Source: Candidatus Omnitrophota bacterium
Lineage (GTDB): Bacteria > Omnitrophota > Gorgyraeia > Zapsychrales > Fredricksoniimonadaceae
Assembly (NCBI GenBank): GCA_903944345.1
Contig: CAJARJ010000001.1
Location: forward strand, 12,339-76,338
Reading direction: 5' to 3'
DNA: 64,000 nt
Shown here: positions 4,898 to 42,886 of the stretch, one piece after another
Layout: each line of letters opens with the position of its first letter
Position numbering within the stretch: the stretch's first letter is position 1
Made by a program: the position numbers and the translations under genes
Notes under the pieces: model-generated
Databases searched by the model: none
What the model saw: the letters and a program-made list of their open reading frames with translations, nothing else
Told to the model about the DNA's origin: nothing

Positions 4898-7800
4898 TTA
4901 AAGGCGAATCCAGCCACCAAAAGATTTTACCGGAGCAATTCCTGTTATTACCGGGACAAGGCTGTCAATATTTACAACCTCTGAAATCATGGCCCAATCC
5001 AAAGAGAACGTTTGTCCCGAACGCTCCAAGGGAATTGCACCAGTATCCAGATCGATACCGCCATAACCAGAATCTTCCACAACGGCTGCGGGGTCTTCTA
5101 TTTCCATAAAGTCACCCCCAGAAAGGCGGGAAAAAACCCGGACTCCACCGTCTTCCCCGGTCATCCGAACAGTGTCTATCTGCTTGCTTTCATCTTCTTT
5201 TAAAGCTGCAATAAGATCATCCAGATGCAAAAGACCTTGAATCAGCGGAGCTTTCTGCGTCATTTGCTCAAACAAAAAGTCTGGCATTAACAAATGACCT
5301 GTAGAAGTCCGCCGAGTACTTTCCTCCACAAGGCTCAGTGCATTTTCTCTTGTAGCCGCGACCCGGAAGCTGCCCAAATCTTTAAGCTCGAACAAGCGTC
5401 CTGGCGTAAGCTTATAACCATCTGCAAGCATTATTGTAATCTCATCTCCACCCATCCGGGTCACGAAGTCCTCAATGCCCCAGAATCTTAACTTTTCAAC
5501 AACCCTGTTATATGCCTCTTGAAACTGAATAGTCACCCGGTCAGCCGCCGTTCTCATCAGGGCTTCCCATTGGTCTGAAGAAACCTTGCCCATGCTTTGC
5601 AAAAGAACCTGAAATTCTTCTGCATTCCGCAAACCAAGCCCCACAACATCCATCGCAATGATAGCCGGGTAACGATAACCTGACGCTCTAATGAAAAAAG
5701 CAAATTCGGAGTCTACCTCCGGCAACTTGCTGTTGCTAGAAACAAATTTCACCGCAGTATTTATAAAGGCCTCTGTCCTGGGATCATACGCTATTCTAAA
5801 ATCTTCCTGCTTGTTTCGAATCAATTCACGCAAAGCATTAACCAGAACAAGAACCCGCTGCGCACGATGCCTGGCCCGAATCGGGTCAGTTGACCACTGT
5901 TTGATATAATCTACCGTTTTCAGCAAACTGTAGTACCGCTGAAGTTTCCGATAACTTCCTTCATTGTCAATCAAAAACCGTTCATCAGGACTAAAATCCT
6001 GCCAAGCCGTTCCTTTACGTAACGGTTTCAAAATCTCCGGCTTTAACAACCCGAAAACAACGCCTTCTCGTTCTTGCTCATTAAAGAATCCTTCGCGGGT
6101 CAACTCTTGCCGCAACTGATTCTCTTCGTCAATAACCTCCTGCATATGCTCCTCATAAAACCTGGAGCTGCCGCCAAGCAGTCCTAACGCTGCGAAAGCA
6201 ATCATACGCTCTGCCTGCATAACCGCTTCTGTCTGATTTGTATATCCATCGCCAGTTTCGGCAACACGACTGATCCCATAAGGGAGCGGAAAAAGATATT
6301 CTTCATTAGGACCGGTCAAACTTATCTGCCCTGCAGAAACCTGCGGCGAGGCTAACTCCAGAGAAAGCCTTTCCGTGATCGAAGCAACTGCTCTTTGCCG
6401 GGCACGAACCACGCGCTGCTCAAACTGCAGGTCATTAAAGTCTGCATCATTATCAAAAGTGTAAATCGTGGTCTTGTAATCCGACAACACTATACGGGGG
6501 ACAAGCCCTTCGCTTTGTAAAGCTTTCGTTAAATAGGATCGTGTATCCGCAATCACAAGATTATTCAAAGATTCCCCCAGAATAGCATTAAGATCTTTAA
6601 GCCCCAAACGCCCGGGCGCACTACCCGGACGCTGAAAGACAACGACGCGCCGACCGGAGGGAATGGACATGATCCCCGCCAATGGAGCCGAGCGCAAAAG
6701 TTGCTCGATCAGCACCCTAATGTCCTCAACAGAAATCCGTACTCCTCGCCGATAGAGATCAACAGTCCGGTAAATTCTTTCTATCCAGATAATTTTGCGG
6801 GCCATACGCTGAGCATGTTCCTGCTTCTGCTCAGCCGTCAGTTCGGCCAGATCCAAAGACTCTTCCGGAACAAACTCGAACAACAACGAGGGCTCCTGAT
6901 CTTCCGGAACCAAGGCCATGCCGGTCGCAAACTCCCTGGTTACAGCCAGCAACGCTCCGGATACAACTGCATCCGCAGCTGTCTGCGCCCGATCCAAGGG
7001 AAAATTCTCAACAAAATTAACACCGCCAGAAAAATACCGCCGAGCAATAACTTCTGAATAATCAACGGACACCTCTTCCCGAATCAGAGAAAAAGCTCCC
7101 TTACGAAACGCTTCCATGTAGCGCCCGTAAAGCTGCTTACTGTCATCCGGCCCGGCCAGGTCTATGCCCTTAACCTTGTTCTGCCCGGTATAGCCGGCAT
7201 TAAGAGGACTTCCGGTCAAACCTTCCTTATACCATCTCGCCAAAATAAGCGAATGGTAAATCTGCCGTAGCGGCGCAAAATGATCCGCTTCGTTCACCGC
7301 CTGCTCCAGAAGCGGCACGATCACCTCGCGCAAGATATCATCCATCTGCAAATCCGGCATTGTCTCTGCCGCCGCCGGCTGTTCCCCGGCCTGCGAATGC
7401 GACGAGCGATACTCGCGATCCAGAAGAACCTTTAAGCGGGCTTCAAGAATAATCACCCGGCCGTTATCCTCATATATCCTGGCCTTCGCCGGAGTTACCC
7501 AGACCCTGTTTAGCACATCCGTAGGGACTTCCGTATTGCCGTACATCTCGTAGGCCTTTCGATAAACCTCGGCCCAGAAGCGCTTCCCGCTGACGCTGTC
7601 GGGATGAAGCATAGACGCGGACACCTGCTTAAGCAGATAATCCTGCGCCAGCAAATCTCTTCCCATTTCTGTTCTGGAGAAATCTTCCGGAATAATCCGG
7701 TCTTTGTCATAAGGAGAAAGGTTAACCCATAATTCGCCGGCAGGCACGGTCAGTGCCGCCAGAAAGTAGCGGATCAATCGGGCAGATTCATCTTTAAAAT

Positions 7801-8062
7801 CGTCGGGCTGACCGGAAAGGTTTCCTGTATCGAGAAGAAAGCTGAATTGAAACGGCTTTTGAGGGTCAATTTGCATGCCCTTGAGCACGGGAGGCGTCAG
7901 CGGACGGCCAGGACTGACCATGACACCAGGCATGGGCAATTGGCCAGGAACCGAAAATGTCTCGGCACGAAGCGGTAAAGGTAATGTGAAACAATAAGCT
8001 ACAACAAGAAAACTGGCAATAACCCGACGAAGAAATCCTGCAAAAAAAACAAATACCGACAT
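4898..8062 (-). CDS. Large secreted/membrane-anchored protein, paralog 1 of a three-member family (conserved about 350-aa N-terminal domain, variable middle, shared C-terminal GGIDL tail)
   Basis: Shares PPVLKG...F.F.LD.G...WVNLSPY(E/D)KDRIIPE.F..TEMGRDLLAQDY(V/L)LKQ...(Q/K)RFW..VY...NEG..F..LRQIY.SLILA.WYK...LIREE...RKYF(A/S)GG with ORFs at 8186-10573 and 20655-23990; the track start at 8095 is GTG, so ATG at 8062 is preferred. Confidence 0.8.
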   Translation of the reverse strand: MSVFVFFAGFLRRVIASFLVVAYCFTLPLPLRAETFSVPGQLPMPGVMVSPGRPLTPPVLKGMQIDPQKPFQFSFLLDTGNLSGQPDDFKDESARLIRYFLAALTVPAGELWVNLSPYDKDRIIPEDFSRTEMGRDLLAQDYLLKQVSASMLHPDSVSGKRFWAEVYRKAYEMYGNTEVPTDVLNRVWVTPAKARIYEDNGRVIILEARLKVLLDREYRSSHSQAGEQPAAAETMPDLQMDDILREVIVPLLEQAVNEADHFAPLRQIYHSLILARWYKEGLTGSPLNAGYTGQNKVKGIDLAGPDDSKQLYGRYMEAFRKGAFSLIREEVSVDYSEVIARRYFSGGVNFVENFPLDRAQTAADAVVSGALLAVTREFATGMALVPEDQEPSLLFEFVPEESLDLAELTAEQKQEHAQRMARKIIWIERIYRTVDLYRRGVRISVEDIRVLIEQLLRSAPLAGIMSIPSGRRVVVFQRPGSAPGRLGLKDLNAILGESLNNLVIADTRSYLTKALQSEGLVPRIVLSDYKTTIYTFDNDADFNDLQFEQRVVRARQRAVASITERLSLELASPQVSAGQISLTGPNEEYLFPLPYGISRVAETGDGYTNQTEAVMQAERMIAFAALGLLGGSSRFYEEHMQEVIDEENQLRQELTREGFFNEQEREGVVFGLLKPEILKPLRKGTAWQDFSPDERFLIDNEGSYRKLQRYYSLLKTVDYIKQWSTDPIRARHRAQRVLVLVNALRELIRNKQEDFRIAYDPRTEAFINTAVKFVSSNSKLPEVDSEFAFFIRASGYRYPAIIAMDVVGLGLRNAEEFQVLLQSMGKVSSDQWEALMRTAADRVTIQFQEAYNRVVEKLRFWGIEDFVTRMGGDEITIMLADGYKLTPGRLFELKDLGSFRVAATRENALSLVEESTRRTSTGHLLMPDFLFEQMTQKAPLIQGLLHLDDLIAALKEDESKQIDTVRMTGEDGGVRVFSRLSGGDFMEIEDPAAVVEDSGYGGIDLDTGAIPLERSGQTFSLDWAMISEVVNIDSLVPVITGIAPVKSFGGWIRL

Positions 8063-8185
8063 GACCTCATCCCACCTTCTATTAACCCAAATCACTAATA
8101 ATTATTTGATAAACATATAAAATATAACAAACTATATCCTGTATTATGTACTTTGGCAAGGATCGAGGAAACCCCGAATCCGAAT

Positions 8186-10573
8186 TCAGGGCCGCCCGTT
8201 TGGGAATTCGCCAAAAAACTCGGCGGCATCCAGAACTCGTATAGACCCAATAACCGGAACAAAACCAGCCGAACCTTCTGCCTGTACTGATAGCCCAGTC
8301 GAATAAAGAATATTTGCTCCTGTTTTGGAATCAGACTTATCCGAATCCATTACAACCTCCGTCAGATCAATCCCGCCTTTCGCCGCTTCAGAACTATCCC
8401 GGGCCGTCAAAGAATAACCTGTCGTCAGCAAAGAAAAAGCGGGAGCATTGCTATTGATGTTCAAAAGCAATCCGCCCGTCGCTCCCCAATACTGCGAGAC
8501 TGACACTCCCGTCGTCGGGATTATCCCGGCAGAACTTACGGGCGGATGAACATCCGGTGAAGAAAGTGTCAAGGCTGCGGGAACCTTTCCGGAAAACTGC
8601 CAGAAACTTGTCTCCTTCAGCACCTTGAGCGTCCGTATCGCAAAATGAAAAGACGATGAATTATTGATTGCCACGTCTCCCGCGGGAACAAGAACTCTCA
8701 AATTTGAACCGTATCTCTGCCGAGCGTTTTCCAGCCGGCCTGGACGGATTGAAGAAATGAGCTGCGACTGTTCGTTAGCCCCTGCGTCCAGCAGAATCGA
8801 CGGCAGGTTTAACAACCTCTTTTGGTGCTCCCGAGCTTCATCCAAGGAAATATCTGTCTCCAGATTGGAAAGATTAATCCATTTCAGAATTGTGCCCTTA
8901 AGACGCAACAGGACTGCAATCTGCTTCATAGCCGCGACATTCAAGATGTCAACATGCGCCACAATCACCCTATCCGAAGCGATAAGCGTCTTGAGGGCCC
9001 GGAATTGTTGCTCGTCTATTGCCCACAGCAAAGGAGTCCTCCCTCTGTAACGATACCCATCCTTAATGTAGGATTCAAAGCCGCCATCGCCAAACCTGAC
9101 TGGATCTGCCTCCACGAGCACTTTGCGAACAGCCGCAAGCAACCCGCCAAAATCCTCGGAGTGCTCCACCAAACGTAAAAGTTCAAAAGTCACGCGAGCC
9201 ACCTTGCTGTCAATATCAAGAATGACTATCAGGTCTGCCTCTCTTTCCAGCGCAATATCTATATTGTGAAACGAGCCTATGCCCAGATAGCCTCCGCCTT
9301 TCTCCCCAAAGCCATCAAGCCCTGCCAATAAATAATTAATATCCTCGTTCGACATCATCCATCCCTCCGAGCGGATGCTGATACCGGAATCAATCCACCT
9401 GACTCCTGGCTGCATGGCCATATCCACCTCAAGAAGAACGCCTTCTGCAGCCACCAAATTCGGCACAGAAACAAGATTGGATTCAACTATCTTCATAAGT
9501 GAGCTGACCTGGAAATGGGCTCCGCCAGCGAAATATTTCCGTGATATCAGCCCGGACAAAACATCCTCCTCTTCCCGGACCAACACGCTGACTCCCTGGC
9601 TGAATGTTTTCAGATAACGTTCCCAAATCTTCCGAGCTTCGCCGAAATCACTAATCTGAACCCCCGAAGTTTTGTTACGATCAACGTAGGCCATTGAAAA
9701 AACTGAGTGGCGCATCTTTTTCTTGTACCAGGCAGCCAGAATAAGGGATTGATAAATCTGACGAAGTTGCGAAAAATTCCGGCCCTCGTTGACTTCTTGT
9801 TCCAGAACAGGAATAACGATTTCGCGCAGGACAGATATGGCAATCTCGTTCTCTCTCTGGTCAGGTACCAGCTTATTTCCCTGGTCCGATTTCACACTTA
9901 ACCCTGGTGGGGTCGGCAAAGCGTTGTTCGATGTTGCCAGATAATCCGTCTCCAACTTAACCTTCAGGCGCGAATCCGTGATATAAACTGCGCCGACTTT
10001 AGCATTCTCGTAAACTACAACTTTATCCGGGACAATCCACACCTTGTTGAACGTATTAATAGGGATATCTGTTGTGCCATACCTTTCCTGCGCCAAAGCG
10101 TACACTCTCTGCCAGAATTTCTGACCATTCTCTCCTTGAGGAGATAACAATAACGCTGTGATCTGCTTGAGAACATAGTCCTGCGCCAGAAGGTCTCGAC
10201 CCATTTCGGTCTGCCCGAAAGCTTCGGGGATGATACGGTCTTTTTCATACGGCGAAAGGTTGACCCATAAGTCTTTCTCTGGAATGGTCAAGCTGGCCAG
10301 AAAATATTTGACCAATTTTTCGGATTCTTTTTTCAGGAGACCCTGCTCCCTGATTGACTGCAGAGTTTGCTCCCCAGGATCCAAAATAAAGTCAAATCTG
10401 AGCGGATCGTTAGGATAAACTTTAAGTCCTTTAAGGACAGGAGGATTAAACGCTGCACTCAAGGGCAACATCTGCCCCGAATCTGATGACGGAAACTGAG
10501 CCGAAACCGGACTTTCAATCTGAACAATAAAAACAGAAAGAAAAACCGAAGACAGGAATTTACGTATAAGCAT
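8186..10573 (-). CDS. Secreted protein, paralog 2 of the same family (795 aa), in tandem with paralog 1
   Basis: Signal peptide MLIRKFLSSVFLSVFIVQIESPVSA; conserved N-terminal domain and C-terminal GGIDL tail. Confidence 0.8.
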   Translation of the reverse strand: MLIRKFLSSVFLSVFIVQIESPVSAQFPSSDSGQMLPLSAAFNPPVLKGLKVYPNDPLRFDFILDPGEQTLQSIREQGLLKKESEKLVKYFLASLTIPEKDLWVNLSPYEKDRIIPEAFGQTEMGRDLLAQDYVLKQITALLLSPQGENGQKFWQRVYALAQERYGTTDIPINTFNKVWIVPDKVVVYENAKVGAVYITDSRLKVKLETDYLATSNNALPTPPGLSVKSDQGNKLVPDQRENEIAISVLREIVIPVLEQEVNEGRNFSQLRQIYQSLILAAWYKKKMRHSVFSMAYVDRNKTSGVQISDFGEARKIWERYLKTFSQGVSVLVREEEDVLSGLISRKYFAGGAHFQVSSLMKIVESNLVSVPNLVAAEGVLLEVDMAMQPGVRWIDSGISIRSEGWMMSNEDINYLLAGLDGFGEKGGGYLGIGSFHNIDIALEREADLIVILDIDSKVARVTFELLRLVEHSEDFGGLLAAVRKVLVEADPVRFGDGGFESYIKDGYRYRGRTPLLWAIDEQQFRALKTLIASDRVIVAHVDILNVAAMKQIAVLLRLKGTILKWINLSNLETDISLDEAREHQKRLLNLPSILLDAGANEQSQLISSIRPGRLENARQRYGSNLRVLVPAGDVAINNSSSFHFAIRTLKVLKETSFWQFSGKVPAALTLSSPDVHPPVSSAGIIPTTGVSVSQYWGATGGLLLNINSNAPAFSLLTTGYSLTARDSSEAAKGGIDLTEVVMDSDKSDSKTGANILYSTGLSVQAEGSAGFVPVIGSIRVLDAAEFFGEFPNGRP

Positions 10574-14213: not shown

Positions 14214-14633
14214 TTACGCCAGGGCGATATTAAAAATATCATGCCGACCCACAACTCCGACCAATATCTTGCCATCAAAAACAGGAATGGTCACTGCCCC
14301 TTTTTTGTGCAACAAGGCCAACGCTTTAAGAGCACTGTCATCTTTCTGGAGGCTTGGATAAACCGGGTCAATAAATTCGCTGACCGGACGCTCGGCAACC
14401 ACGTTCAGGGCCTGGATCTTCTGTCCTCCTTTATCCATTACATCCCCGATAATATCCATCAGGTCTTCGGTGGTAAATATCCCCAGAAGCCCCTCAGGAG
14501 ACTGTGGATCAACCACCAATACCCCATTAATCCGGTAGCGTAACAACAAGTGTGCGGTGTTTCTGATAGAAACATCCGGACGAACCTTAATTGGATGATC
14601 ATTCATGATATCCGCAACCGGTAAATTAAGCAT
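14214..14633 (-). CDS. CBS domain pair protein
   Basis: Two CBS-like motifs (VADIM...PIKV; VSEFI...PSLQ) in a 139-aa protein. Confidence 0.75.
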   Translation of the reverse strand: MLNLPVADIMNDHPIKVRPDVSIRNTAHLLLRYRINGVLVVDPQSPEGLLGIFTTEDLMDIIGDVMDKGGQKIQALNVVAERPVSEFIDPVYPSLQKDDSALKALALLHKKGAVTIPVFDGKILVGVVGRHDIFNIALA

Positions 14634-14751
14634 ATCCCTCCTTGACCCAAAGTCTCTCCCAGAATTATTTTTAAACAGCCCCCTTTAAAAATATCAAGTA
14701 ATAGCTTATACTTTAACCGGATTGGCAGGACTGTCAACTCTAAGGATATAT

Positions 14752-16293
14752 ATGATAAACAAACGACATGGTCAGTCAGTTGTTGAGTATTCTATCCTGA
14801 TCATGCTTGTCGTGATCAGTATTGTTATCGGCGGCCCATTTCTCAGAAGATCAGTTCAGGCTTTTCTCAGAACACAATCCCAGGCAGTAAAAGACGCAGA
14901 CCGCGAGAACATCCGCCAGAGTGGCAACATCCCTCCAACTCCTCCCTGCACCTGTAGCGGATGGACGGACGGCGGCTGCGGAGCCGGCATTTGTGACGAA
15001 ACCCAACGCTACTCATCACGAATCTGCACTCCCCTGGCCTGTGAACGCGAATATGCCTGTACTAGCGACGCATCCTGCTGTACCACAGGTTACAAATTTG
15101 TCGACTGCGGTTCTATTGTGGATTATTCCGCTTACGAATATCTGGAATGCCCGTGGCGCGCTAGCGTAGACCCCCAATTGTCGGCTGCAGCCTCAGCTGT
15201 CGGCCAGGCCTCCTGGGGCACATGCATGACTGCCCAAGGCGCTGACACCTTGCTTTGCGCGATTGGAGAGGCTCGCATAACGTTGCGTTGCGGCAGTGAT
15301 AACGGCAGCACCATGGTTTACGCCTGCGTTGATCAACCCGCCTGCCGTCCTGCCTGCTGGAACATAAAAGACGAAACCTCCGAACCGTCTCCCGGCTCCC
15401 AGGCCTGTCCGGCCTCCGAAGAGTATAGCCGCGGAATGATCCTGACACAGGAAGTCGCCTACCGGAAACACGGGGGGGCTCCCAGCAACACTGATATGCC
15501 CACGCGGGAACTCAAACTTTTCAAATATGAAAGTACTGACCTGTCTCCCCAGTATAATGGCGATAGCGCCTTGCGCGGCGCATGGCAAATCCCCTGGGCC
15601 TATGTTGACAGCGAAGAAGACTGCACACACGGACCAACATATTGGCCACGCGGGTGCACACGTTTTTGCACGAACGGCTATGTCCCCGGAGTAACCGCCG
15701 ACACCTGTGAGCCACCGTCCTGCGACACCAATCGCGTGCGGACAAATACAACTTATACCGGAACAGCGCCGGCTTCAGCCACCTCGCCGCTCTCTGCAAC
15801 CGGAATTGTCGAAAAAACAGAAGAACTTTCTGCCCCGCTTGGTGCTACTCTGCCCGTCAAAGGCGGAACCGCCATCAACTATAAGAGCCCGTTAATACGA
15901 GTTCCTTCGATTTTTACTTTCGACGTTTGGGCGGAAGATCTCAACTTTTACGTTGCCTGCTTTAATGCCAGCGGAGAAATCGTTGAAGAATATTATTCGA
16001 ACCCCAAACCGGTTGAGTTCTTTGAATGCCCCTCGGCAAATGCCATTGAAATCAACGACCACAAGTACTGCTACCGGGACATCTCTGGGCAAGTGTATGT
16101 GGACACCGATGACCTGATCAACCACAACATCGACCAGGCTTCCTGCGGCTGCACCAACTGTGACAATCCTGCCACGGCAACATATTCGGCTAACCAGATT
16201 TTCATCCGTGTTTTTGAGGGCGGCATGAAAGGATCCAGTGCTTTGGGAGCCCGAGTCCGTTACAACGAATTCCGGCCCTTGACAGATCCTTGA
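14752..16293 (+). CDS. Cysteine-rich (over 40 Cys) exported protein with an Flp/Fap-pilin-like class III signal and N-terminal hydrophobic segment
   Basis: N-terminus MINKRHG-QSVVEYSILIMLVVISIVIGG matches the Flp prepilin G/xxxxEY processing motif; AAGGA RBS 7 nt upstream of the ATG at 14752 (the alternative TTG at 14722 is less likely); C-terminal 480 aa Cys-rich, non-repetitive. Confidence 0.7.
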   Translation: MINKRHGQSVVEYSILIMLVVISIVIGGPFLRRSVQAFLRTQSQAVKDADRENIRQSGNIPPTPPCTCSGWTDGGCGAGICDETQRYSSRICTPLACEREYACTSDASCCTTGYKFVDCGSIVDYSAYEYLECPWRASVDPQLSAAASAVGQASWGTCMTAQGADTLLCAIGEARITLRCGSDNGSTMVYACVDQPACRPACWNIKDETSEPSPGSQACPASEEYSRGMILTQEVAYRKHGGAPSNTDMPTRELKLFKYESTDLSPQYNGDSALRGAWQIPWAYVDSEEDCTHGPTYWPRGCTRFCTNGYVPGVTADTCEPPSCDTNRVRTNTTYTGTAPASATSPLSATGIVEKTEELSAPLGATLPVKGGTAINYKSPLIRVPSIFTFDVWAEDLNFYVACFNASGEIVEEYYSNPKPVEFFECPSANAIEINDHKYCYRDISGQVYVDTDDLINHNIDQASCGCTNCDNPATATYSANQIFIRVFEGGMKGSSALGARVRYNEFRPLTDP

Positions 16294-16302
16294 TAGAAGA
16301 AG

Positions 16303-16680
16303 TTAGTTCGAAAAAAAACGGGTAAGCTTCATCAGCAACGACTCATTGTGAAAAGGCTTGGCCAGATAATCATCAGCACCGAGCTCCATCATCCGCTCCA
16401 TCTCCGCCGTATCCAGCACACCGGACACCACCAGAATCTTGATCGGATCGCTTATAGTTTCCCTGATAGACCGACATACATCATAGCCATCCATTCCAGG
16501 CATACGAATATCCAGTAAAACCAGATCAGGCTTGGAATCCGCGATCATCCGCAAAGCGGACAAGCCGTCATTGGCTGTCTCAACCACAAAATTGCCTATC
16601 ATATACAAAACCCTGCGCAATGAGGCACACATCTCAGGGTCATCATCAACAACCAGAATCCTTTTGGCAACCTTTGTCAT
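16303..16680 (-). CDS. Stand-alone response-regulator receiver (CheY-like) domain protein
   Basis: VVDDD...DLVLLDIRMPGMDGY...KPF receiver motifs with conserved Asp/Lys. Confidence 0.85.
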   Translation of the reverse strand: MTKVAKRILVVDDDPEMCASLRRVLYMIGNFVVETANDGLSALRMIADSKPDLVLLDIRMPGMDGYDVCRSIRETISDPIKILVVSGVLDTAEMERMMELGADDYLAKPFHNESLLMKLTRFFSN

Positions 16681-17033
16681 AAAACATCCTCTTTTTGTCC
16701 TGACTTAAGAAGAAAGAAACTGTAACAACGCAAGAAGTTCTCACACACTTCGGCGGGAGTATCCACCAGCTGGACTCCGGTGTGATAATACTTTTCCTTG
16801 GCCACAAAACCTGACCAAACCACTTCTGTACGAACCACCAAAAGAGGAAACTCCCTGACCTCAAGGGAAATATCAATCTTGTTCCCCGGCTCAAAAGGAG
16901 TTAACCCTGAGAAACACACGCCATGGCTGTTAATATCCACAATCCTGACCGACATGTCCCGCCCCGATACCAGCGGACGCGCCTGCGCCGGAAAATCAAC
17001 CTTGACCCTGCACCAATGACGTTTGTTAGACAT
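16677..17033 (-). CDS. PilZ domain (c-di-GMP-binding) protein, overlapping the receiver gene by 4 nt
   Basis: RHWCR...DINSHGVCF resembles the PilZ RxxxR and D/NxSxGG motifs; ATGA start/stop overlap with the downstream receiver gene. Confidence 0.65.
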   Translation of the reverse strand: MSNKRHWCRVKVDFPAQARPLVSGRDMSVRIVDINSHGVCFSGLTPFEPGNKIDISLEVREFPLLVVRTEVVWSGFVAKEKYYHTGVQLVDTPAEVCENFLRCYSFFLLKSGQKEDVL

Positions 17034-20654: not shown

Positions 20655-23600
20655 TCACCTCTGACCATCAAAGAAAACAGCACCCCCCTGACTGGGACGA
20701 ATAGCTGCGATCTCAGGAAAAAAACCGCGACAGGACTGATACTCTTTCCACAAATCCGATCCGGAATAAAACCCTTTCCAGTCGTCCGTTCCCTGAATTT
20801 CAAGAAGATCTTCTGTTGAATTCAAATCAATACCACCAGGGGCCTCTGCTGCGTCTTCCCCTGAATCAGACATCTCTCGAATCAGGACTTGTCCGGAAGC
20901 ATCAAATTCGAACTCAAGTTTTATTGATCCATAAGAATACAATTGTCTTGTCCCGGCCTTGTACGGCCCCCTTTCATCTCCTCCCTGCCGTTGAAAAAAG
21001 AAATCGTCCCCGGATCGTCGCAACAAAAAAACAAAAGAACCGACGGGCCCCTGTTTCCTGGAGTCCCTCTCCATAGGCACCAAAGCACGCGCCTTACCAC
21101 GATAGAAAACATCCCCTGTCACAGGATCTTCGACTCTGAACCCCTCATTTCTGGAGAACGTAAAGCGCAGGCCAAGAGCCTCAAACCCTTTTTGAACGGC
21201 ATAATAAGAATTCTGTGACATCCCCGGAACACCATCAGGATAGAAAATGGGCCTTAAAGCATCCGCAATCTGAGGAGCAACGGATTGCATGCGTAAAAAA
21301 AGAAACTGCAAATCAAGACTCGGGATTTCGCCGACAAGTTCTTCGCTCATCCAGAAACCATCCGCCACCTTTGTCCCGGTAAGATTATCGTCTCTATAAT
21401 AATCACGCACAATCCTGGCGACTGCATCTATAGCCTTTTCCTGCTCGTCGGACGAGCGAAAAGATGTAAAATATATATTTATCGAATCGTGACGATTCTC
21501 CGGCGAACTGCCCGCCCCCAAAGACGGTCGACCTGATTTGTAATTCCCCTGAATCAACGGACCGGAACCGTCCTGGTCGATAAACAAACGATCCAGAGCC
21601 TGAATGCTTTGCGGATTGACCATAATATTCAGTTTCATACGACCACGCAGCGGCCCCTGGATATTATGACCACCACGAAAGACCCAACCCCCTTGCTCTG
21701 TAACCTCTATGCCCGAGGCAGAAGCCCGCAAAGCCGCCTCAAACTCAACCTCGTTCGATGCCCCGTAAGTTCTTGCTGGAGCATAAGAAGCCTCTGTAAG
21801 ATACATATAATAATCCCTTACAATCTGAAATAATACATCCCCCCATTTCTGCGGAAATCGCGTCAATTGATCAATTCTTTTTTGTTTCACGATATCTGGA
21901 TCAAGCTGCAAGCGTCGATAAACCTTATCAAATTGATCAAAAGAACTGATAAGTTGTTTCGCGCGACTCCTGTCCAGTGGCGAAGCAACAGGCATAGCGC
22001 CATCCCAATACTGTTGAAAGTCTTTTTCTTCAGTATCAAAATAATCCGATAGCGCCCTGTACACGGGCTTGTATAAAGTCGTATCGTAAAATTTTACAAG
22101 CTGGGTAGGAAACGATTGATCATCAGGTATCTTGTGGTCAAAAGTTGTCAGACTCTCTGCCCGATAAAAACTCTCTTCCCCTTGATCAAGCACTCCCCCG
22201 ATCGAATCAAAGATATGCATCTGCTCTGCACCCAGAACTTCATCCAGAGTCACCATCTTTTGGCCATATAATAATTCCACCTCAACCCTGCCAACAAACG
22301 ACTGCAAAAGACTCTCTGCCTCAGTGGTCACAAAAGGAGCCGCAACAATAAAACGGGGTCTTTCTCCTTTTGCGTTCTCCTCAAACCAGGCGTTAACCTG
22401 ATCAATGGTTCTTTTAATCTGCTGGCCTCCATACAAAGCATCGTCAAAAATTACAAAATCCCTGATCCCTGCATTGAACATTTTCCTCAACGCCCCGGTT
22501 CGGCTCTCAGATGCTCCCTGAAAGTATGATGCCATCTGAGGGGTTGTCTGCAAATCCTCTTCCACTAGCGAATAAACCCACCGGCGTGACTTGTGCTTGT
22601 CGAAATCCCACAAAACAGCATATGGCCTCTCTTTGTACGCATGCCGGAGATCATTAAACCTTGACACAAGCCTGTCCAGCTCACTCTTAAACTCGGGGAA
22701 AGAAATATGCCGCAGATTTTCAGCTATCTTTTTCTTAATTTCCCGTATTGACGAATCAGGCTCATTCTTCCACCAAGCCTCAAGCTCCTCTGTTTTCAGT
22801 CTTGGGACAAAGTCCGGTGACTGAAACAAATCAGATTTTAATCCCGGCCCCGTCCCCTTAATAACAGAGACCTCCAGGCCATCATCAACCGGATGAAGTA
22901 TTATCTCGACAAACATATCGCGCCCTGAAACATCTCCGAAGACAACCGGCGGATTTCTAAAGAGAATCGATCCCTGGGAAAAGTCCATATTCATTCCCCC
23001 GGAGAAATACTTTCTCGGGATCACTTCATCCGAATAAACATCCTTCTCTTCCCGGATCAGGTTATAGGCCCCCTGGCGAAATGATTCCGCATACCGCTGC
23101 CAGATTTTTTCCGCTTCCTTCGGATCGTCAATATTGACACCCGCTGTTTTGTTGCGGTTCACATACACCTCCGACAACAACGACTGCCAGATTTTCTTCT
23201 TGTACCATGTTGCCAAAATCAGGGACTGATAAACCTGACGCAGCCGGGCAAAGCCCTCCCCCTCATTGACCTCTTTCTCCAGTGCAGGAACGACCACCTC
23301 ACGCAGGACAGCGCGAGCTATGTCCGATCCAGCGGATACCGTCCGATCCGCTCCAAGTCCGCCTCCTGCCGCCAGATAATCCTGCTCCAGCATAACCTTC
23401 AGGCGTGACTCCGCAATGTACACCGCTCCGGCTCCGGCATTGCCGTACACCACCGCCTTGTCAGGCACAATCCACACCTTGTTGAACGTATCTATCGGAA
23501 TATCCGTAGTACCGTATTTCTCCTGTGCCAGGGCGTAGACTTTCCGCCAGAACCTCTTGCCTGTTTCCCCTTCCGGGTGCAATAACGAAGACGTGAGCTG

Positions 23601-23990
23601 TTTAAGAATATAATCCTGCTCCAGAAGATCCCGGCCCATTTCAGTCTGGCCAAACGCTTCGGGAATAATGCGGTCTTTCTCGTAAGGAGACAGGTTGACC
23701 CACAGGTCTTTTTCGGGAACAGTCAGGCTGGCGAGGAAATACCGGACGAGCTTTTCGGATTCTTTCTTGAGATCCGGTTCTGATCGCGTCCCCGGATCAA
23801 GAATGAAATCAAAGCGAAGAGGTTCTTTCGGATATACCTTAAGTCCTTTCAGCACAGCAGGTTGAAACCCTGCTCCGGAGACAGCCATCCCTCCGGCAGA
23901 AGGCAGAACGGGCTGGGATTGCCCCCAGGACAACTGCTCCAGAAAAAAGACCACCGCAAACAGAACAGACAAAACTTTCCTTATAACCAT
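20655..23990 (-). CDS. Secreted protein, paralog 3 of the three-member family (1111 aa)
   Basis: Signal peptide MVIRKVLSVLFAVVFFLEQLSWG; conserved N-terminal domain with the WVNLSPYEKDRIIPEAFGQTEMGRDLL stretch (identical to paralog 2 except one residue); C-terminal GGIDL tail. Confidence 0.8.
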   Translation of the reverse strand: MVIRKVLSVLFAVVFFLEQLSWGQSQPVLPSAGGMAVSGAGFQPAVLKGLKVYPKEPLRFDFILDPGTRSEPDLKKESEKLVRYFLASLTVPEKDLWVNLSPYEKDRIIPEAFGQTEMGRDLLEQDYILKQLTSSLLHPEGETGKRFWRKVYALAQEKYGTTDIPIDTFNKVWIVPDKAVVYGNAGAGAVYIAESRLKVMLEQDYLAAGGGLGADRTVSAGSDIARAVLREVVVPALEKEVNEGEGFARLRQVYQSLILATWYKKKIWQSLLSEVYVNRNKTAGVNIDDPKEAEKIWQRYAESFRQGAYNLIREEKDVYSDEVIPRKYFSGGMNMDFSQGSILFRNPPVVFGDVSGRDMFVEIILHPVDDGLEVSVIKGTGPGLKSDLFQSPDFVPRLKTEELEAWWKNEPDSSIREIKKKIAENLRHISFPEFKSELDRLVSRFNDLRHAYKERPYAVLWDFDKHKSRRWVYSLVEEDLQTTPQMASYFQGASESRTGALRKMFNAGIRDFVIFDDALYGGQQIKRTIDQVNAWFEENAKGERPRFIVAAPFVTTEAESLLQSFVGRVEVELLYGQKMVTLDEVLGAEQMHIFDSIGGVLDQGEESFYRAESLTTFDHKIPDDQSFPTQLVKFYDTTLYKPVYRALSDYFDTEEKDFQQYWDGAMPVASPLDRSRAKQLISSFDQFDKVYRRLQLDPDIVKQKRIDQLTRFPQKWGDVLFQIVRDYYMYLTEASYAPARTYGASNEVEFEAALRASASGIEVTEQGGWVFRGGHNIQGPLRGRMKLNIMVNPQSIQALDRLFIDQDGSGPLIQGNYKSGRPSLGAGSSPENRHDSINIYFTSFRSSDEQEKAIDAVARIVRDYYRDDNLTGTKVADGFWMSEELVGEIPSLDLQFLFLRMQSVAPQIADALRPIFYPDGVPGMSQNSYYAVQKGFEALGLRFTFSRNEGFRVEDPVTGDVFYRGKARALVPMERDSRKQGPVGSFVFLLRRSGDDFFFQRQGGDERGPYKAGTRQLYSYGSIKLEFEFDASGQVLIREMSDSGEDAAEAPGGIDLNSTEDLLEIQGTDDWKGFYSGSDLWKEYQSCRGFFPEIAAIRPSQGGAVFFDGQR

Positions 23991-31414: not shown

Positions 31415-31831
31415 TTATTCCTGCCAATTAACAACATCATCCTGCCCCTCGACCCCGTCCCGCCCAAGGGAGAACAGGTCAAAATCATGCGACCGGTGGC
31501 TGCCTGGCGATTTATACTGGTACAATCGACCCCAGGGATCAACCGGATTTTTGTCCAGATAAGGCCCTTTCCAGCGCAAAGCCGATGATGGCGCCTTGAG
31601 AAGCGCCGCCAGACCTTCTTCTGTCGTCGGAAAGGCTCCATTGTCCAACTCATACATCTTAAGAGCCGTGGCCAGATTCAGCTCCACGTCAGCCTGGGCC
31701 ACACTACGCCTGGCCTCCTCGGAACGCCCGGAAAGTTTTGGCACAATCATCGCCGCCAGAACACCGATAATGATCACCACCAACATAATCTCAACCAAAG
31801 TAAAACCTCTGCGAAAACGCCTGAAACTCAT
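31415..31831 (-). CDS. gspG: Type II secretion major pseudopilin GspG
   Basis: Class III prepilin signal RRGFTLVEIMLVVIIIGVLAAM; GspG core LDNGAFPTTEEGLAALL...WKGPYL...DPWG..Y.Y..PG...DFDL.SLG.DG; the track ORF start is extended spuriously, so ATG at 31831 with a GGAGG RBS is used. Confidence 0.85.
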   Translation of the reverse strand: MSFRRFRRGFTLVEIMLVVIIIGVLAAMIVPKLSGRSEEARRSVAQADVELNLATALKMYELDNGAFPTTEEGLAALLKAPSSALRWKGPYLDKNPVDPWGRLYQYKSPGSHRSHDFDLFSLGRDGVEGQDDVVNWQE

Positions 31832-31847
31832 AAGCCTTTGCCTCCGT

Positions 31848-32693
31848 TCAATATTCACGCCAGGAAAGAATTTTTTCCTGGCCAACAACCACTTCGTAAT
31901 CAACTCCTCTGCGGCCCAGAACATATGTCCTAACCTGCAGCCTGAGCGCTGAAGACTTGACATCCAGCGCCCCGGACAAGGACTGCAACAACGCCAGCTG
32001 GGACTGGCCCAGCATGATTTCATTTGAAAGAGTCGCAGCCAACGCGTCAGCGCTTTCAAAAAAACCGTCGTCGTCCGTCCCTTCTGTCTCGTCGGCTCCG
32101 GCACGAACCGCCAGCACCGCCTGAACCAGATTAATATCAAAACCCAACGCCCCCAGCACAACCGAAGAGGCGGTGTTAATGTTAATTTTGCTCTCACCGT
32201 AAACGGTCAAATGCTCCCGACACTGAGCCCATACCTCGGGAGTGACGCCCTCAACCAGTCGCAATTCTTCCAGAACGGCATAAGGGCGCGCTGAACGGAT
32301 AATATTTTCGGCGATGGCCTGGCTTAACCCGGGAATACGAACCAGGATCTCCTGTGTCGCGGTATTCACGTTAATCCTGGCAGTCTCATCTGCCAGGACG
32401 TATTCGGCCTTACCGGACCCCGCCGCAAAAGCCCTGGAACGACCAAGATCGGTCAAAGCATCGTACTCTTTAACCGGCTCTAGTCGCTCGTCAATGACCT
32501 CCAGCGCAGCCGAACGGGCCAGCGGCCAGCCAAGAACCAGTTCCTCATATTTCTTCAGAATGCGGATCCTGGTGGATATCCCGGAAGAAACACCCAAACC
32601 GAGAATGACAAAAAAAACCATCACCCAGAGCGCCGCGATCAGAATGCTGCCGTTATCCCGCGGGAATAAAAACAACTTTCTCGAATTCCTCAT
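31848..32693 (-). CDS. gspK: GspK-like minor pseudopilin with two helix-hairpin-helix motifs
   Basis: Hydrophobic N-terminus GSILIAALWVMVFFVILGL; HhH-like INVNTATQEILVRIPGLSQAIAENII and ININTASSVVLGALG; internal ATG chosen. Confidence 0.65.
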   Translation of the reverse strand: MRNSRKLFLFPRDNGSILIAALWVMVFFVILGLGVSSGISTRIRILKKYEELVLGWPLARSAALEVIDERLEPVKEYDALTDLGRSRAFAAGSGKAEYVLADETARINVNTATQEILVRIPGLSQAIAENIIRSARPYAVLEELRLVEGVTPEVWAQCREHLTVYGESKININTASSVVLGALGFDINLVQAVLAVRAGADETEGTDDDGFFESADALAATLSNEIMLGQSQLALLQSLSGALDVKSSALRLQVRTYVLGRRGVDYEVVVGQEKILSWREY

Positions 32694-33204
32694 CCTGATA
32701 TTTCCCCCGCAACGAAACTGCCTGGCATAACCCGAGTTCTTTGGTCCACTCTTCACTACGGGTCACCCCTTGCCCGCTGATGACCAGATATTCCAGCGAC
32801 AAGTCCGTCGCAGCCAGCATACGCTTTTCAACAGGAGTTTCCTGCCCGGCACGAATATCCGCAAGCCGCTCGACGCGCCGGACCAGACCCCCCTCGTTCA
32901 CCCTGACTTCATAGGCGACGCGAACCACCTGTCCGTCGTGAACCATCGCAAAAATAAAATGACTGCGATCACCTTCCATTCCGATCTCGGGTACGGATTG
33001 CGCCTGACGAATGTCCCGGGCCACAACTTCCAGATCAATACGGAACATATCCTGCACGCCGCTCGAACTGGTAATCCTGCTCCACAAACGCAAGCCCGAA
33101 ACCAGTACCCCGCCCAAACCTGCCGCCACGCAGCCCAGAATCACGCTGACCAGCATAATCTCGACGAGGGTAAATCCGTAGCGGCGCCGACTACTCTTTT
33201 TCAT
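32653..33204 (-). CDS. Minor pseudopilin (GspJ/PulJ-like) with an N-terminal prepilin methylation motif
   Basis: RYGFTLVEIMLVSVILGCVAAG class III signal. Confidence 0.65.
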   Translation of the reverse strand: MKKSSRRRYGFTLVEIMLVSVILGCVAAGLGGVLVSGLRLWSRITSSSGVQDMFRIDLEVVARDIRQAQSVPEIGMEGDRSHFIFAMVHDGQVVRVAYEVRVNEGGLVRRVERLADIRAGQETPVEKRMLAATDLSLEYLVISGQGVTRSEEWTKELGLCQAVSLRGKYQDEEFEKVVFIPAG

Positions 33205-33589
33205 GCACAAGAAAGCCCAGCACTTCATCCCTGGCTACCACCCCTTCCTTCCAGACTACTGACAGCAAAACCCGGCTGAGGCCAGTCTGCTGATCATCCC
33301 GACGCCAGGCAGAAACATCCTGACTGAAAACCGCCTTCCGCCCTCCGGCCATAAGCCGCGGTTCCGACGTAAAAAGCTCGTCGTCGCCCCCGGCCTCCTG
33401 CCAACGCGCAAGACCGGTATCCAGCCACACAAGAGCTGCAAAACGATTATTAAGATGATCCAGAGCGGACGCCGCCGAAAGAAATGAACGCAAAACACCG
33501 ACAATACCAACGGAAAGGATGCAGACGGCGACCATCAGCTCAACCAGGGAGAAACCGGAGCCGGCAGGCTCACTGCAACGCCAGCTCAA
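33191..33589 (-). CDS. Minor pseudopilin (GspI/H-like)
   Basis: GSGFSLVELMVAVCILSVGIVG class III signal, 132 aa. Confidence 0.7.
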   Translation of the reverse strand: MSWRCSEPAGSGFSLVELMVAVCILSVGIVGVLRSFLSAASALDHLNNRFAALVWLDTGLARWQEAGGDDELFTSEPRLMAGGRKAVFSQDVSAWRRDDQQTGLSRVLLSVVWKEGVVARDEVLGFLVHEKE

Positions 33590-34106
33590 TGGTCAACTCC
33601 CCTTTCAGCAGGGCAGCGGATTCGTCCTTGGCGCTCAAAGACAGGCGGATAATCCGAATGAGAAGACGGCTGTTTTCAACCAACCGGACAAAATCCATGA
33701 CTTTCTCCGGAGTGCCTTCCATGCGCAAATCAACCTTGAGAATTTTGCTGCGCAAAATGGCTTCCTGAGTCCCCTGTGGACTGAGATTTATAATGGAAAC
33801 CCCGGCTTCTTTGGCAATACGCTCGCTCTCGCGTAAAAGCGCCTCGGAAAGCACTCGCACATCGGACTCTTTGCCAGGCAAATACTCCTTGTAGCGGGAA
33901 TGCTCCTCCTGAATCGCCTGCGCACCCTGGCGTATGCCTAAAAGACGCACAAACTTTTCTTCGGAAGCAGACGTCTGCTGGCTGATCGCCCGGAATTTGG
34001 CACGAATATCCTTGACGATCCAGACCACCACAAACAACGTCAGCAGCAGACAAGCCGCACCGATGAGCATGACACTGTTCTTTTTATCAGACAGAAAATT
34101 GGCCAT
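33570..34106 (-). CDS. PilO/GspM-like bitopic inner-membrane assembly protein
   Basis: Single N-terminal TM, coiled-coil, periplasmic domain; located between the pilM-N fusion and the pseudopilins. Confidence 0.5.
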   Translation of the reverse strand: MANFLSDKKNSVMLIGAACLLLTLFVVVWIVKDIRAKFRAISQQTSASEEKFVRLLGIRQGAQAIQEEHSRYKEYLPGKESDVRVLSEALLRESERIAKEAGVSIINLSPQGTQEAILRSKILKVDLRMEGTPEKVMDFVRLVENSRLLIRIIRLSLSAKDESAALLKGELTIELALQ

Positions 34107-34109
34107 AAA

Positions 34110-35480
34110 TCACTCAACCGTAAAACTGACTTCGAATTCCGTCAGATCCCGATCCCTGACTTTTTTCTTACGTGTCGAACGTGTCTGGACATCGCGAAAC
34201 CGCTTGATGCCCCCCAGGCTATCAATAAACTGAAACGCTGTAGCCAGCCCGTCCGCCTGGCCGCGCAAAAAAACCTTGCCCTTTTCGTCAAGCGAAACAG
34301 CGGTAATCGCCACCGTATCCGGAATAATGGACTGAACCTCAGACACAATAACCCCGGGGGTCTGCCGGGCATTCAGATTCTTTTTAACAAAATCGGTCTT
34401 GCCCGCCTTGTCGACAACCTCAGAAAGTTCCCGCTCCAGCAGAGCAGTCTTGAACTGGACAGTTTTTAAATGACTTTCCCGAATATATACCTGTGACCAG
34501 TAAAAACCTCCGACCAGAACCAGCAGATAGCAAAACAGGCCGGAAAAGAAAACCAGATCCGCCGTATCCTTGCGCAGGGTCTTGCGAATCTGAATCTCCG
34601 GAAGCAAAAGCGTAGCCTCGGCCGAACCCTCACCGCCAAGGACAGCCATGCTGCTCACGGAAACATCGGATCCAACCCCCTTGGCAGACGACTCCACTGT
34701 AACCGGAACATCAAATTCGTCTTTAAGTTTCTGCTCCAGCAAGCCTGCCGCCTTGGCCCCACAAAGCACAATACCGGCAATCTTCTGGTTCATTTCCTCG
34801 TTATGAAACATGACCAAAGACTGCTTGACCTCGCCGATAAATTTAAGCGACGCCGACTCGAAATCGGAAATAAGGCTTCTGGCCCCGACATTGATGCTTC
34901 GGGAGAACAACAAATTATCTTTCTGCATGATTACACAGTCAGTAAAGCCTGCGTCGATGTCCAGAACCAGCATTAACGCCTCGCTGGCGGGTTGGGAGCG
35001 ATACGCGTTCCAAAGACCGTAACTGGACAAAGTCAGACGCTCAACCAGAAGCCCGGCTTTCTCGACCATAGCCACCTGTCGACGCAGAATGTCTGCCCGC
35101 ACAATAACCACCAGCACACGAGTATAACCGACCTCATCCTTGCCGATAATCCGGTGACCGCTGACCACGTCCTCTTTTTTATAAGGAACCATCCTGACAA
35201 TATTGAGATCCACCATCTGGGCAATTTCGCGCTCGTCTTCGGAAGGAAGGTGCAGATTACGAACAGTTGCGGCATTCCTGGAGATCGACAACGTCACCCG
35301 GCCCGAACGGGAGCGCCAGCGTTTGAGGCAGGAAGCCAGCGCCTGGGCCGAAAGGACATCGTTCTCCTGAACGTCTTCGGCAGCGAACTCTTCGGCACGA
35401 AAGCCTGCTCCGGCAGACTGTGCCTGGGCAACCTTGATATGCTCTCTGGAAATTTGAACAATGTAATTCTGTTTTGCCAT
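34110..35480 (-). CDS. PilM (actin-like ATPase fold)-PilN fusion protein
   Basis: About 330-aa PilM-like cytoplasmic domain, TM helix LVFFSGLFCYLLVLVGGFYW, about 110-aa PilN-like periplasmic domain. Confidence 0.7.
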   Translation of the reverse strand: MAKQNYIVQISREHIKVAQAQSAGAGFRAEEFAAEDVQENDVLSAQALASCLKRWRSRSGRVTLSISRNAATVRNLHLPSEDEREIAQMVDLNIVRMVPYKKEDVVSGHRIIGKDEVGYTRVLVVIVRADILRRQVAMVEKAGLLVERLTLSSYGLWNAYRSQPASEALMLVLDIDAGFTDCVIMQKDNLLFSRSINVGARSLISDFESASLKFIGEVKQSLVMFHNEEMNQKIAGIVLCGAKAAGLLEQKLKDEFDVPVTVESSAKGVGSDVSVSSMAVLGGEGSAEATLLLPEIQIRKTLRKDTADLVFFSGLFCYLLVLVGGFYWSQVYIRESHLKTVQFKTALLERELSEVVDKAGKTDFVKKNLNARQTPGVIVSEVQSIIPDTVAITAVSLDEKGKVFLRGQADGLATAFQFIDSLGGIKRFRDVQTRSTRKKKVRDRDLTEFEVSFTVE

Positions 35481-35484
35481 AAGA

Positions 35485-36705: not shown

Positions 36706-36710
36706 AAATT

Positions 36711-40659
<3,949 letters not shown>

Positions 40660-40662
40660 AGA

Positions 40663-42162: not shown

Positions 42163-42169
42163 AGAAGTC

Positions 42170-42886
42170 TTATTTCTTCATTAACTCTGCCGCTTTTTCC
42201 AGACGACCGCGCAAACTACCGTCCATAAGCAGAGTCGAGGCACGCACCACCATGCCGCAGATAAGAGCACTGTCCTGCTCAAATTTAAGTATCGGCGGGC
42301 GCCCCATCTTACCTTCAAGCACCGCAGTGAGGTCGCTGACCCGGAAATCCTGCAAAGGATAAGCGGTAACAACGGCTATTTCGGTCATGACCGAAACCAG
42401 GGAATCCGCCGGCATAACAACAATTTCGGAAAAAAGTTCGTCGATCATTTCTTCGTGCAGGGCCCGCATGGCGCGCGAACTGAAAACCATCCTCGTCATT
42501 TGCAAACCAAAGTCCGCCGCCATAATCCTGTGGGCGGTCATAAGCTGGCGTTCCTTTTTAGCAAACTCCTCGGATTTGCGGGCCGCTTCCTGGGCAAATT
42601 TCTCTTTCATGGAAGCCGTCATTTCGCTGATCAGGCGTGCCGCCTGCTCGCGAGCTTCCTGAATAATCCGTTCGGCTTCCTCGTTGGCGCGGCGAAAAGC
42701 ATCCTCCTGCTCAAGCCGGGCCTTGACCGCCATCTCTCCCAACTCTGTTTCACGGGCAAGGTTGCGCTCATGCAAAACCTTGAGCCGGCCAAGTGCCCCG
42801 TCCAGCTGTTTCTGAAACAACTGACGCAGGAAAAGAAAAAGCAAAAAAAGCGCAACAATCTGAATAATCAGCAATTGAAGGAACAT
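42170..42886 (-). CDS. atpFH: ATP synthase b subunit fused to a truncated delta (OSCP C-terminal domain only)
   Basis: N-terminal TM plus long charged coiled coil (b-like); C-terminal ...ICGMVVRASTLLMDGSLRGRLEKAAELM matches the delta C-terminal motif; total 238 aa, so the delta N-terminal domain is absent. Confidence 0.65.
   Translation of the reverse strand: MFLQLLIIQIVALFLLFLFLRQLFQKQLDGALGRLKVLHERNLARETELGEMAVKARLEQEDAFRRANEEAERIIQEAREQAARLISEMTASMKEKFAQEAARKSEEFAKKERQLMTAHRIMAADFGLQMTRMVFSSRAMRALHEEMIDELFSEIVVMPADSLVSVMTEIAVVTAYPLQDFRVSDLTAVLEGKMGRPPILKFEQDSALICGMVVRASTLLMDGSLRGRLEKAAELMKK

Follow-up and report, generated by a model that had tools for sequence, protein, structure and literature searches.

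What is the N-terminus of a small pilin doing at the head of a long, cysteine-rich protein? The question is raised by one gene, here called the target (positions 14752-16293, + strand), in a 64,000-nucleotide stretch of contig CAJARJ010000001.1 from a Candidatus Omnitrophota bacterium; this whole stretch is referred to as the window. A sequence-only reading had seen a Flp-type class III signal on the protein and had proposed an unusually large minor pilin, a tip adhesin or a protein that hijacks a prepilin peptidase pathway. From homology searches and structure models, we lean towards the view that the target is a modular type IV pilin-like protein displaying an adhesin. This view draws on a conserved class III module, matches of relatives to hidden Markov models (HMMs), free-standing short forms of the module, a short and a long form in tandem, the gene neighbourhoods of relatives, AlphaFold2 (AF2) models and the literature on modular pilins.

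The target gene and its N-terminal module

The frame on the + strand is uninterrupted and ends at 16293, as had been stated and as the listing of open reading frames (ORFs) and the translation bear out. It gives 523 amino acids (aa) from TTG 14722, the first possible start and the one behind the length reported earlier, and 513 aa from ATG 14752, which is most likely where translation starts. We favour this ATG because AAGGA stands 5-9 nt upstream, together with a promoter-like site, because the orthologue P0001 (locus L001) starts at the same methionine, and because the leaders in the family are mostly short. If the promoter-like site at 14684-14712 is real, TTG 14722 is excluded as a start, since it would fall in the untranslated leader. 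The 513-aa product is identical to the database protein P0157, which is named 'hypothetical protein' in its source records and is encoded on a 630-kb contig. P0001, with a 7-residue leader, shares 96% aa identity with the target, and the two genes differ by 149 synonymous and 22 non-synonymous codons (pN/pS 0.057). We take the gene to be real, expressed and under strong purifying selection. Its product contains 29 cysteines (5.7%), so the earlier count of more than 40 was overstated; with 0-1 cysteines per 800-1100 aa in the other exported proteins of the window, and eight in a giant protein of 4918 aa, the target is an outlier. The features of the gene are as follows.

14684-14712, + strand: promoter-like site TTTAAA-17-TATACT (consensus scan, a pattern match only)
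14742-14746, + strand: Shine-Dalgarno-like AAGGA, 5-9 nt before ATG 14752, read from the sequence
14752-16293, + strand: coding sequence, 513 aa plus stop, product identical to P0157
14752-14772, + strand: predicted leader MINKRHG (aa 1-7), a short basic peptide with Gly at -1; cut predicted between G7 and Q8 from family statistics
14773-14922, + strand: pilin module (aa 8-57) comprising QSVVEY, a hydrophobic helix, GGP (Pro +22) and an amphipathic helix; assigned from conservation, AF2 and the Flp_Fap matches of relatives
14923-14946, + strand: Pro-rich linker GNIPPTPP (aa 58-65), read from the sequence; the short forms stop here
14947-15741, + strand: conserved Cys-rich core (aa 66-330), 23 Cys in invariant or near-invariant columns
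15874-16290, + strand: C-terminal beta-rich domain (about aa 375-513), 6 Cys, from alignment A5; low-confidence in AF2, mostly strands

A class III (prepilin-type) signal combines a short basic leader, Gly or Ala at position -1, a buried Glu at +5 and a hydrophobic helix of about 20 residues; Glu +5 followed by Tyr +6 is its Flp flavour. The N-terminus of the target, which reads MINKRHGQSVVEYSILIMLVVISIVIGGP, carries these marks, with a basic leader ending in Gly and with E12 as the Glu +5 inside a hydrophobic helix of ~20 residues. It also agrees with the processing motif G/xxxxEY, in the form G7/QSVVEY13 (the slash marks the cut). A motif scan of the window found no other G-x4-E-Y followed by a hydrophobic stretch, and the remaining G-x4-E sites comprised three canonical G/F(T/S)LVE pseudopilins, two sites in non-coding frames and nothing else. 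The full-length AF2 model places one long helix (residues 10-51) ahead of a separate globular region, at a low to moderate predicted local distance difference test score (pLDDT) of ~45-61.

To place the module in a family, we ran an exhaustive HMMER search with the target, which returned 263 cluster representatives at E<=1e-3, of which 67 reach E<=1e-10; nearly all of the matches align via query residues 1-120. The word-indexed protein search had returned the 96% orthologue only, and a search of genome contigs with the target sequence found nothing. Where genomes with a family member are named, they are nearly always metagenome-assembled genomes of Candidatus Omnitrophota (contig search, subfamily alignment A4), and every member that we looked up and that bears a name is a 'hypothetical protein' of Candidatus Omnitrophota. 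Position statistics, taken over 102 family members, show G (62%) or A (37%) at -1, Q at +1 (96%), S at +2 (72%), E at +5 (98%), Y at +6 (89%), G at +21 (92%), P at +22 (93%) and a small residue (A, G or S) at +30 (98%). MAFFT alignments independently give Q8, E12, G28 and P29 as at least 90% conserved. The leaders mostly span 5-12 aa, with K or R frequent at -1, -2 and -3 relative to the G/A, and the helix is followed by an amphipathic stretch with the consensus (G/M)GPYV(L/I)RS(I/V)NAHFK..D(D/E)SVxDS and then by a Pro-rich linker.

Comparison with known models points the same way at the level of the family. Flp_Fap is the sole Pfam family that relatives match repeatedly (11 of 106 full-length sequences and 13 of 47 N-terminal fragments, best E 7e-6), and TIGR04205, a class III signal model, is the sole recurrent NCBIfam match (4 of 47, best E 9e-4). 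One further relative matches 'prepilin peptidase-dependent protein' in the NCBIfam scan, and a single relative out of 47 matches TadE (E 0.03). N_methyl was matched by none of the 47 or the 106 relatives, nor by the target. For the family, then, a class III signal with an Flp-like E5-Y6 is supported by the Flp_Fap and class III matches; the target alone matches no such model. Nor is the N-terminal motif a chance match, as MINKRHG/QSVVEY with its hydrophobic helix is the head that the family of 263 representatives conserves.

Short forms and genomic partners of the family

The module also occurs by itself. A profile of module residues 1-57 recovered 48 proteins of 45-88 aa, with E-values down to 6e-27, one of which had been named 'Flp pilus assembly pilin Flp' by the Joint Genome Institute (JGI); a profile built from the 131-aa N-terminal alignment recovered eight short proteins only. 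The free-standing versions of the module, at 59-73 aa, are Flp-sized, and several of them form complete ORFs within contigs 14-143 kb long (L028, L029, L030). It is where these short forms end that sets the module boundary. In locus L029 a 73-aa, Cys-free short form is followed, after 34 bp, by a 367-aa long form with 31 Cys. Across all 73 residues the two share 67% identity, and their similarity ends exactly where the Cys-rich part starts; the same short form is 45% identical to residues 3-58 of the target. This is the pattern that would be expected of a small (major) pilin encoded beside a modular pilin with which it shares the assembly helix. Such a tandem of short and long forms agrees with the earlier proposal of a large minor pilin or a tip adhesin; a strictly Flp/Tad nature was not borne out.

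We then looked at the neighbours of ~25 family loci. In seven other species (L007, L009, L010, L011, L012, L014 and L016) the long form is flanked by two operons, pilM-x-pilO-x-secretin on one side and pilC/pilB on the other, the latter encoding a coiled-coil protein, PilC (T2SSF) and MshEN-type PilB ATPases that are 37-39% identical to the GspE of the window. In all seven the family gene is the only one with a class III signal within +/-10 kb. In L013, L018, L019 and L022 a short secretin-domain protein stands just upstream of the family gene, and in L030 a 346-aa secretin (8213-9253) abuts the short form. No tad-specific genes were found near any of the ~25 loci. Because PilM, PilO, secretin, PilC and MshEN-PilB recur, we consider the recurrent partners to be type IVa-like and not Tad.

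Two further observations concern these loci. The short secretins of L013, L018, L019 and L022, located at ~8-9 kb, have 243-271 aa, and of the Secretin domain they contain no more than the C-terminal portion; in four of the five loci with a secretin beside the family gene, the short secretin is followed by an AmiC-type amidase. Moreover, a kinase-like gene of the APH family (PF01636) lies directly downstream of family genes, of long and short forms alike, in five loci; four of five match APH, with a best E of 7e-12. An enzyme of this family could modify the pilin, for example by a phospho-form modification. There is no APH-family gene beside the target.

L008, 1344-2447: APH-like gene
L014, 11629-13787: APH-like genes, two copies
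L015, 11051-12094: APH-like gene
L028, 10277-11365: APH-like gene

The cysteine-rich passenger and how the protein may be assembled

Behind the linker comes the cysteine-rich core, whose first ~55 aa form a module common to all family members, CxCxxW...CGxGxC...QRxxxRxCxPxxC...E..C..D..CC...CG. The same Cys module is found as 3-5 tandem repeats in large proteins that have a Sec signal, PKD and Big domains and no pilin head (P0018, P0030, P0032, P0035, P0070 and P0086), so we regard it as a mobile module of extracellular proteins. As an extracellular repeat it is uncatalogued, with no entry in Pfam. The C-terminal ~140 residues of the target are common only to its closest subfamily (P0005, P0006, P0009, P0010, P0014 and P0040). 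Structure prediction had been suggested as a check on the disulfide-rich part. AF2 produced a confident fold for residues 58-335 (pLDDT 85.4, pTM 0.80), and a Foldseek search with this model found no neighbour in the PDB or BFVD. Sequence searches of the PDB with the family profile, the consensus, the N-terminus of the target and a full-length profile likewise gave no meaningful match. The full-length AF2 model, built from 10 sequences, was poor (pLDDT 49) and was therefore kept out of the fold search.

A resemblance of the core to thrombospondin type 1 repeats was considered and dropped. No member out of 47 matches any TSP1 model at E<=1, neither PDB sequences nor Foldseek gave a match, and the likeness of CGxG...RxxxRxC, lacking HMM or fold support, is a visual impression only. 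Other domains occur among the long forms: 4 of the 106 family members or relatives in alignment A1 carry Hint/intein-like domains (Hom_end_hint, Vint, PT-HINT or Hint), and further ones carry VWD, Peptidase_C39_2 or Gly_rich_2. These domains suggest that some long forms may be autoprocessing or toxin-like.

The mechanism we propose is as follows. A prepilin peptidase would remove the leader MINKRHG between G7 and Q8. The mature N-terminus up to about residue 57, with QSVVEY, the hydrophobic helix, Glu +5, Pro +22 and the amphipathic helix, would then constitute a complete pilin module of Flp size. By way of this helix the protein would be pulled out of the inner membrane and incorporated into a type IV filament, or sit at its tip, other pilins being the main subunits; the Pro-rich linker would hold the disulfide-rich ectodomain of ~450 aa outside the filament core as an adhesin or ligand-binding head. 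The assembly machine is most likely of the type IVa/type II secretion system (T2SS) kind, with PilB, PilC, PilM-O and secretin, since homologues sit in such clusters elsewhere and since machinery of this kind is the sole filament machinery in the window.

There is precedent for such an architecture. Modular pilins onto which adhesive modules are grafted have already been established, with a predicted exposure at the tip, as for PilB and PilC of Streptococcus sanguinis (PMC8179133). Like these and CofB, TcpB and ComZ, the target joins a pilin module, a short linker and a bulky functional module; such proteins are expected (PMC8179133) to be of low abundance or tip-located, to be adhesive, and to share their module with small pilins encoded nearby, as happens in L029. 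The target also agrees with the definition of a modular pilin given by Raynaud et al. (2021), in that its C-terminal module, attached to a pilin module by a linker, is found in non-pilin proteins too (P0018, P0030). It differs in that the known modular pilins have an N_methyl (IPR012902) signal with F or M at +1 and an alpha/beta module, whereas the module of the target is an Flp-size helix with Q at +1 and without IPR012902. Furthermore, its grafted part is no recognised domain (neither vWA nor lectin) and has no PDB or BFVD neighbour.

With the Flp/Fap pilins (PF04964) the family shares the short basic leader ending in G or A, Glu +5, Tyr +6, the hydrophobic helix, the size of the short forms (59-73 aa) and the model matches of 13 of the 47 relatives. 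It departs from them in the near-invariant Gln +1, the Gly-Pro at +21/+22 and the amphipathic segment RS(I/V)NAHFK...D(D/E)SVxDS, and the target itself misses the model. Flp pilins have ~50-80 aa, while the target has 513 with a 450-aa Cys-rich extension, and the neighbours of the family are of the PilM/O/Q/C/B type and not Tad. With the type IVa pilins and T2SS pseudopilins (N_methyl, PF07963) the family has in common Glu +5, Pro +22 (as generally known for PilE and GspG) and, in relatives, a position between pilB/pilC and pilMNOPQ-like operons; it differs from them by the absence of N_methyl matches in 47 or 106 members, by Q-S instead of F-T at +1/+2 and by the lack of an alpha/beta globular domain.

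Several observations nevertheless weigh against a modular pilin that displays an adhesin. The target matches none of the Flp_Fap, TadE, N_methyl and Class_IIIsignal models even at E<=10, and the comparison of its 513 aa with Pfam and NCBIfam, including the first 62 aa at E<=10, gave no relevant match. The sequence-only reading had held that its proposal should fall if HMMs failed to support a class III signal, and for this single sequence they do formally fail; the argument for a pilin is thus transitive and runs through the family. Neither the target nor its closest subfamily (P0003, P0161) lies beside pilus genes, and the informative neighbourhoods come from another subfamily, where they may in part reflect shared ancestry and not function. 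A motif scan found no short-form gene in the window, and a scan of the window and 25 related loci for the GxGDxK motif of prepilin peptidases was negative. Ala at -1 is cleaved poorly by bacterial PilD enzymes, and its presence in 37% of members would weaken the case for cleavage by PilD. Finally, what suggests an adhesin is the architecture and the cysteine richness, no ligand-binding domain having been recognised.

With these points in mind, other explanations have to be considered. The class III signal and the peptidase could be used by a protein that is not polymerised and that either is anchored or handed over, as in the Sulfolobus bindosome, whose large sugar-binding proteins carry class III signals, or caps a short T2SS-like pseudopilus, with the Cys domain at the cell envelope in each case. 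We consider this doubtful, even though the class III signature would be the same, a bulky ectodomain of ~450 aa is hard to fit in the body of a filament, the machinery of the window has the T2SS-type pseudopilins GspG/I/J/K, and the target gene is solitary in its genome region. The likeness to archaeal class III signal proteins (PF04021; TIGR04205; the Sulfolobus bindosome) extends to [KR]-[GA]/Q, Glu +5, a large non-pilin passenger and the TIGR04205 matches of 4 of the 47 relatives; it is limited by the bacterial (Omnitrophota) distribution of the family, by the weakness of those matches (best E 9e-4) and by the lack of a PIP-CTERM or archaeosortase context. The short forms and the tandem of short and long forms are more naturally explained by co-assembly, and conservation goes beyond the cleavage site to the entire 50-residue module, which argues for a role in helix-helix packing. 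A plain Sec signal peptide or anchor on a secreted or periplasmic Cys-rich protein, with a pilin likeness due to generic hydrophobicity, is very improbable to us. The failure of the target to match any pilin HMM would agree with it, and the small residue at +30 (98%) can be read as the -1 site of signal peptidase I (SPase I). Yet Sec signal peptides do not conserve sequence, and here Q+1, E+5 (a charge within the hydrophobic stretch), Y+6 and G+21/P+22 reach 89-98% conservation although identity between the proteins is otherwise only ~30%; the amphipathic helix after the hydrophobic segment is conserved as well, at a lower level. Nor does a signal peptide stand alone as a protein of 59-73 aa, as this module does, or explain the Flp_Fap and class III HMM matches of the family.

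The target could also be a canonical Tad/Flp (type IVc) minor pilin of the TadE/TadF/TadG kind, processed by TadV/CpaA, with its tad locus elsewhere in the genome. E5-Y6, the Flp-sized short forms, the Flp_Fap matches of relatives and the one TadE match would suit such a protein, and Tad complexes are frequent in Omnitrophota (PMC10066038). TadE, TadF and TadG (PF07811, PF13400), which occur together with Flp pili, are indeed larger and have an N-terminus processed in the manner of Flp. We find this explanation unlikely all the same, as the genes that recur around the ~25 family loci are those for PilM, PilO, PilC, MshEN-PilB and secretin and not tad-specific ones, only that one relative of 47 touches the TadE model, and the vWA domain of many TadG proteins is absent. 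The near-invariant Pro +22 is moreover a trait of type IVa pilins and GspG, and is not known as one of Flp pilins.

The modular pilin with an adhesive head, which we continue to prefer, would suit what is proposed for the phylum. The Omnitrophota, ultra-small and uncultured, are believed to live by attaching to other cells. An adhesin head is in keeping with the predatory or parasitic, attachment-dependent way of life that has been proposed for them: Seymour et al. (PMC10066038) found type IVa pilus (T4aP) and Tad systems to be frequent in Omnitrophota and linked them to symbiosis or predation. The family, which is absent from Pfam and NCBIfam, is a concrete candidate for the recognition and holding of partners, with a conserved pilin handle and variable Cys-rich heads. 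We can go one step further and imagine, quite tentatively, a hybrid filament in which a type IVa-style machine (PilM/N/O, secretin, PilC, MshEN-PilB) polymerises the helix-only Q1/E5/Y6/P22 pilins of 59-73 aa, while the same module mounts diversifying disulfide-rich heads of a fold not seen before, in long forms of 250-850 aa that include the target, as adhesins for prey or host recognition. If true, this would be a new class of pilin, with a type IVc-like subunit and type IVa-like machinery. Modular pilins and Flp pilins were already known; what is new is the Flp-like, helix-only Q1/E5/Y6/P22 family, its pairing with type IVa-like clusters and a Cys-rich head without PDB or BFVD neighbour, three traits that appear to be confined to one uncultured phylum. 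With this family, the concept of modular pilins would reach beyond N_methyl pilins to a helix-only module of Flp-like type. The finding suggests that surveys based on IPR012902 or Flp_Fap may miss the pilins of a whole phylum.

Neighbours of the target and filament machinery in the window

The genes closest to the target and the filament machinery of the window are these:

14214-14633, - strand: divergent neighbour, a CBS-domain protein; the same neighbour adjoins the homologue P0003
16303-16680, - strand: convergent neighbour, a single-domain response-regulator receiver
16677-17033, - strand: convergent neighbour, a PilZ-domain protein
31415-38390, - strand: GspG/K/J/I-like pseudopilins, PilM-PilN fusion, GspF/PilC and GspE/PilB, the sole type IV filament machinery visible in the window
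60763-62511, - strand: secretin heading the same minus-strand supercluster

The arrangement of CBS gene, target and receiver-PilZ pair is kept in six near-identical metagenome contigs. Near P0003 the CBS gene is adjacent, with a receiver and two PilZ genes 5 kb off, and near P0161 a receiver lies immediately upstream. This is at most a hint of two-component or cyclic di-GMP (c-di-GMP) control of the target.

The cluster at 31415-38390 is a candidate assembly system for the target. The T2SS/T4P-like system had been described as adjacent; it begins ~15 kb away, at 31415, and its secretin lies at 60763. Beyond the end of the window (L025) no pilMNO genes and no second family gene were found beside the secretin. 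The statement that the window has no tad/cpa genes agrees with our scan against Pfam, in which none was seen among the large ORFs, the smaller ones not having been scanned.

The supercluster (31415-62511, - strand) consists, in order, of a 203-aa ORF, the secretin, two TPR proteins, a giant ORF of 4918 aa, two small ORFs, an F-type ATPase set, GspE, GspF, the PilM-PilN fusion and the pseudopilins. The giant ORF (44151-58907, - strand) has an orthologue that matches Kelch, DUF2341 and Laminin_G_3, and the ATPase set (38387-42886, - strand) includes alpha, beta, gamma and b/delta subunits, with no a or c subunit recognised. Two published descriptions match the supercluster: in Omnitrophota, the 'symbiotic' F-ATPase co-located with T4aP genes (PMC10066038) and, in a 2026 preprint, giant ORFs with T2SS/pilus genes on their flanks. 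The listed GspG ORF of 260 aa (31415-32197, - strand) is over-extended from a GTG; because its pilin signal, MSFRRFRRG/FTLVEIM, begins ~120 codons in, the real gene should encode ~140 aa.

The region of the target is flanked by three paralogous, nearly Cys-free Sec-signal proteins of ~800-1100 aa (4898-8095, 8186-10573 and 20655-23990, - strand). Common to all three is an N-terminal PxVLKG...LWVNLSPYEKDRIIPE region; one matches DUF7790. Their number and length vary among the otherwise near-identical contigs L001-L006.

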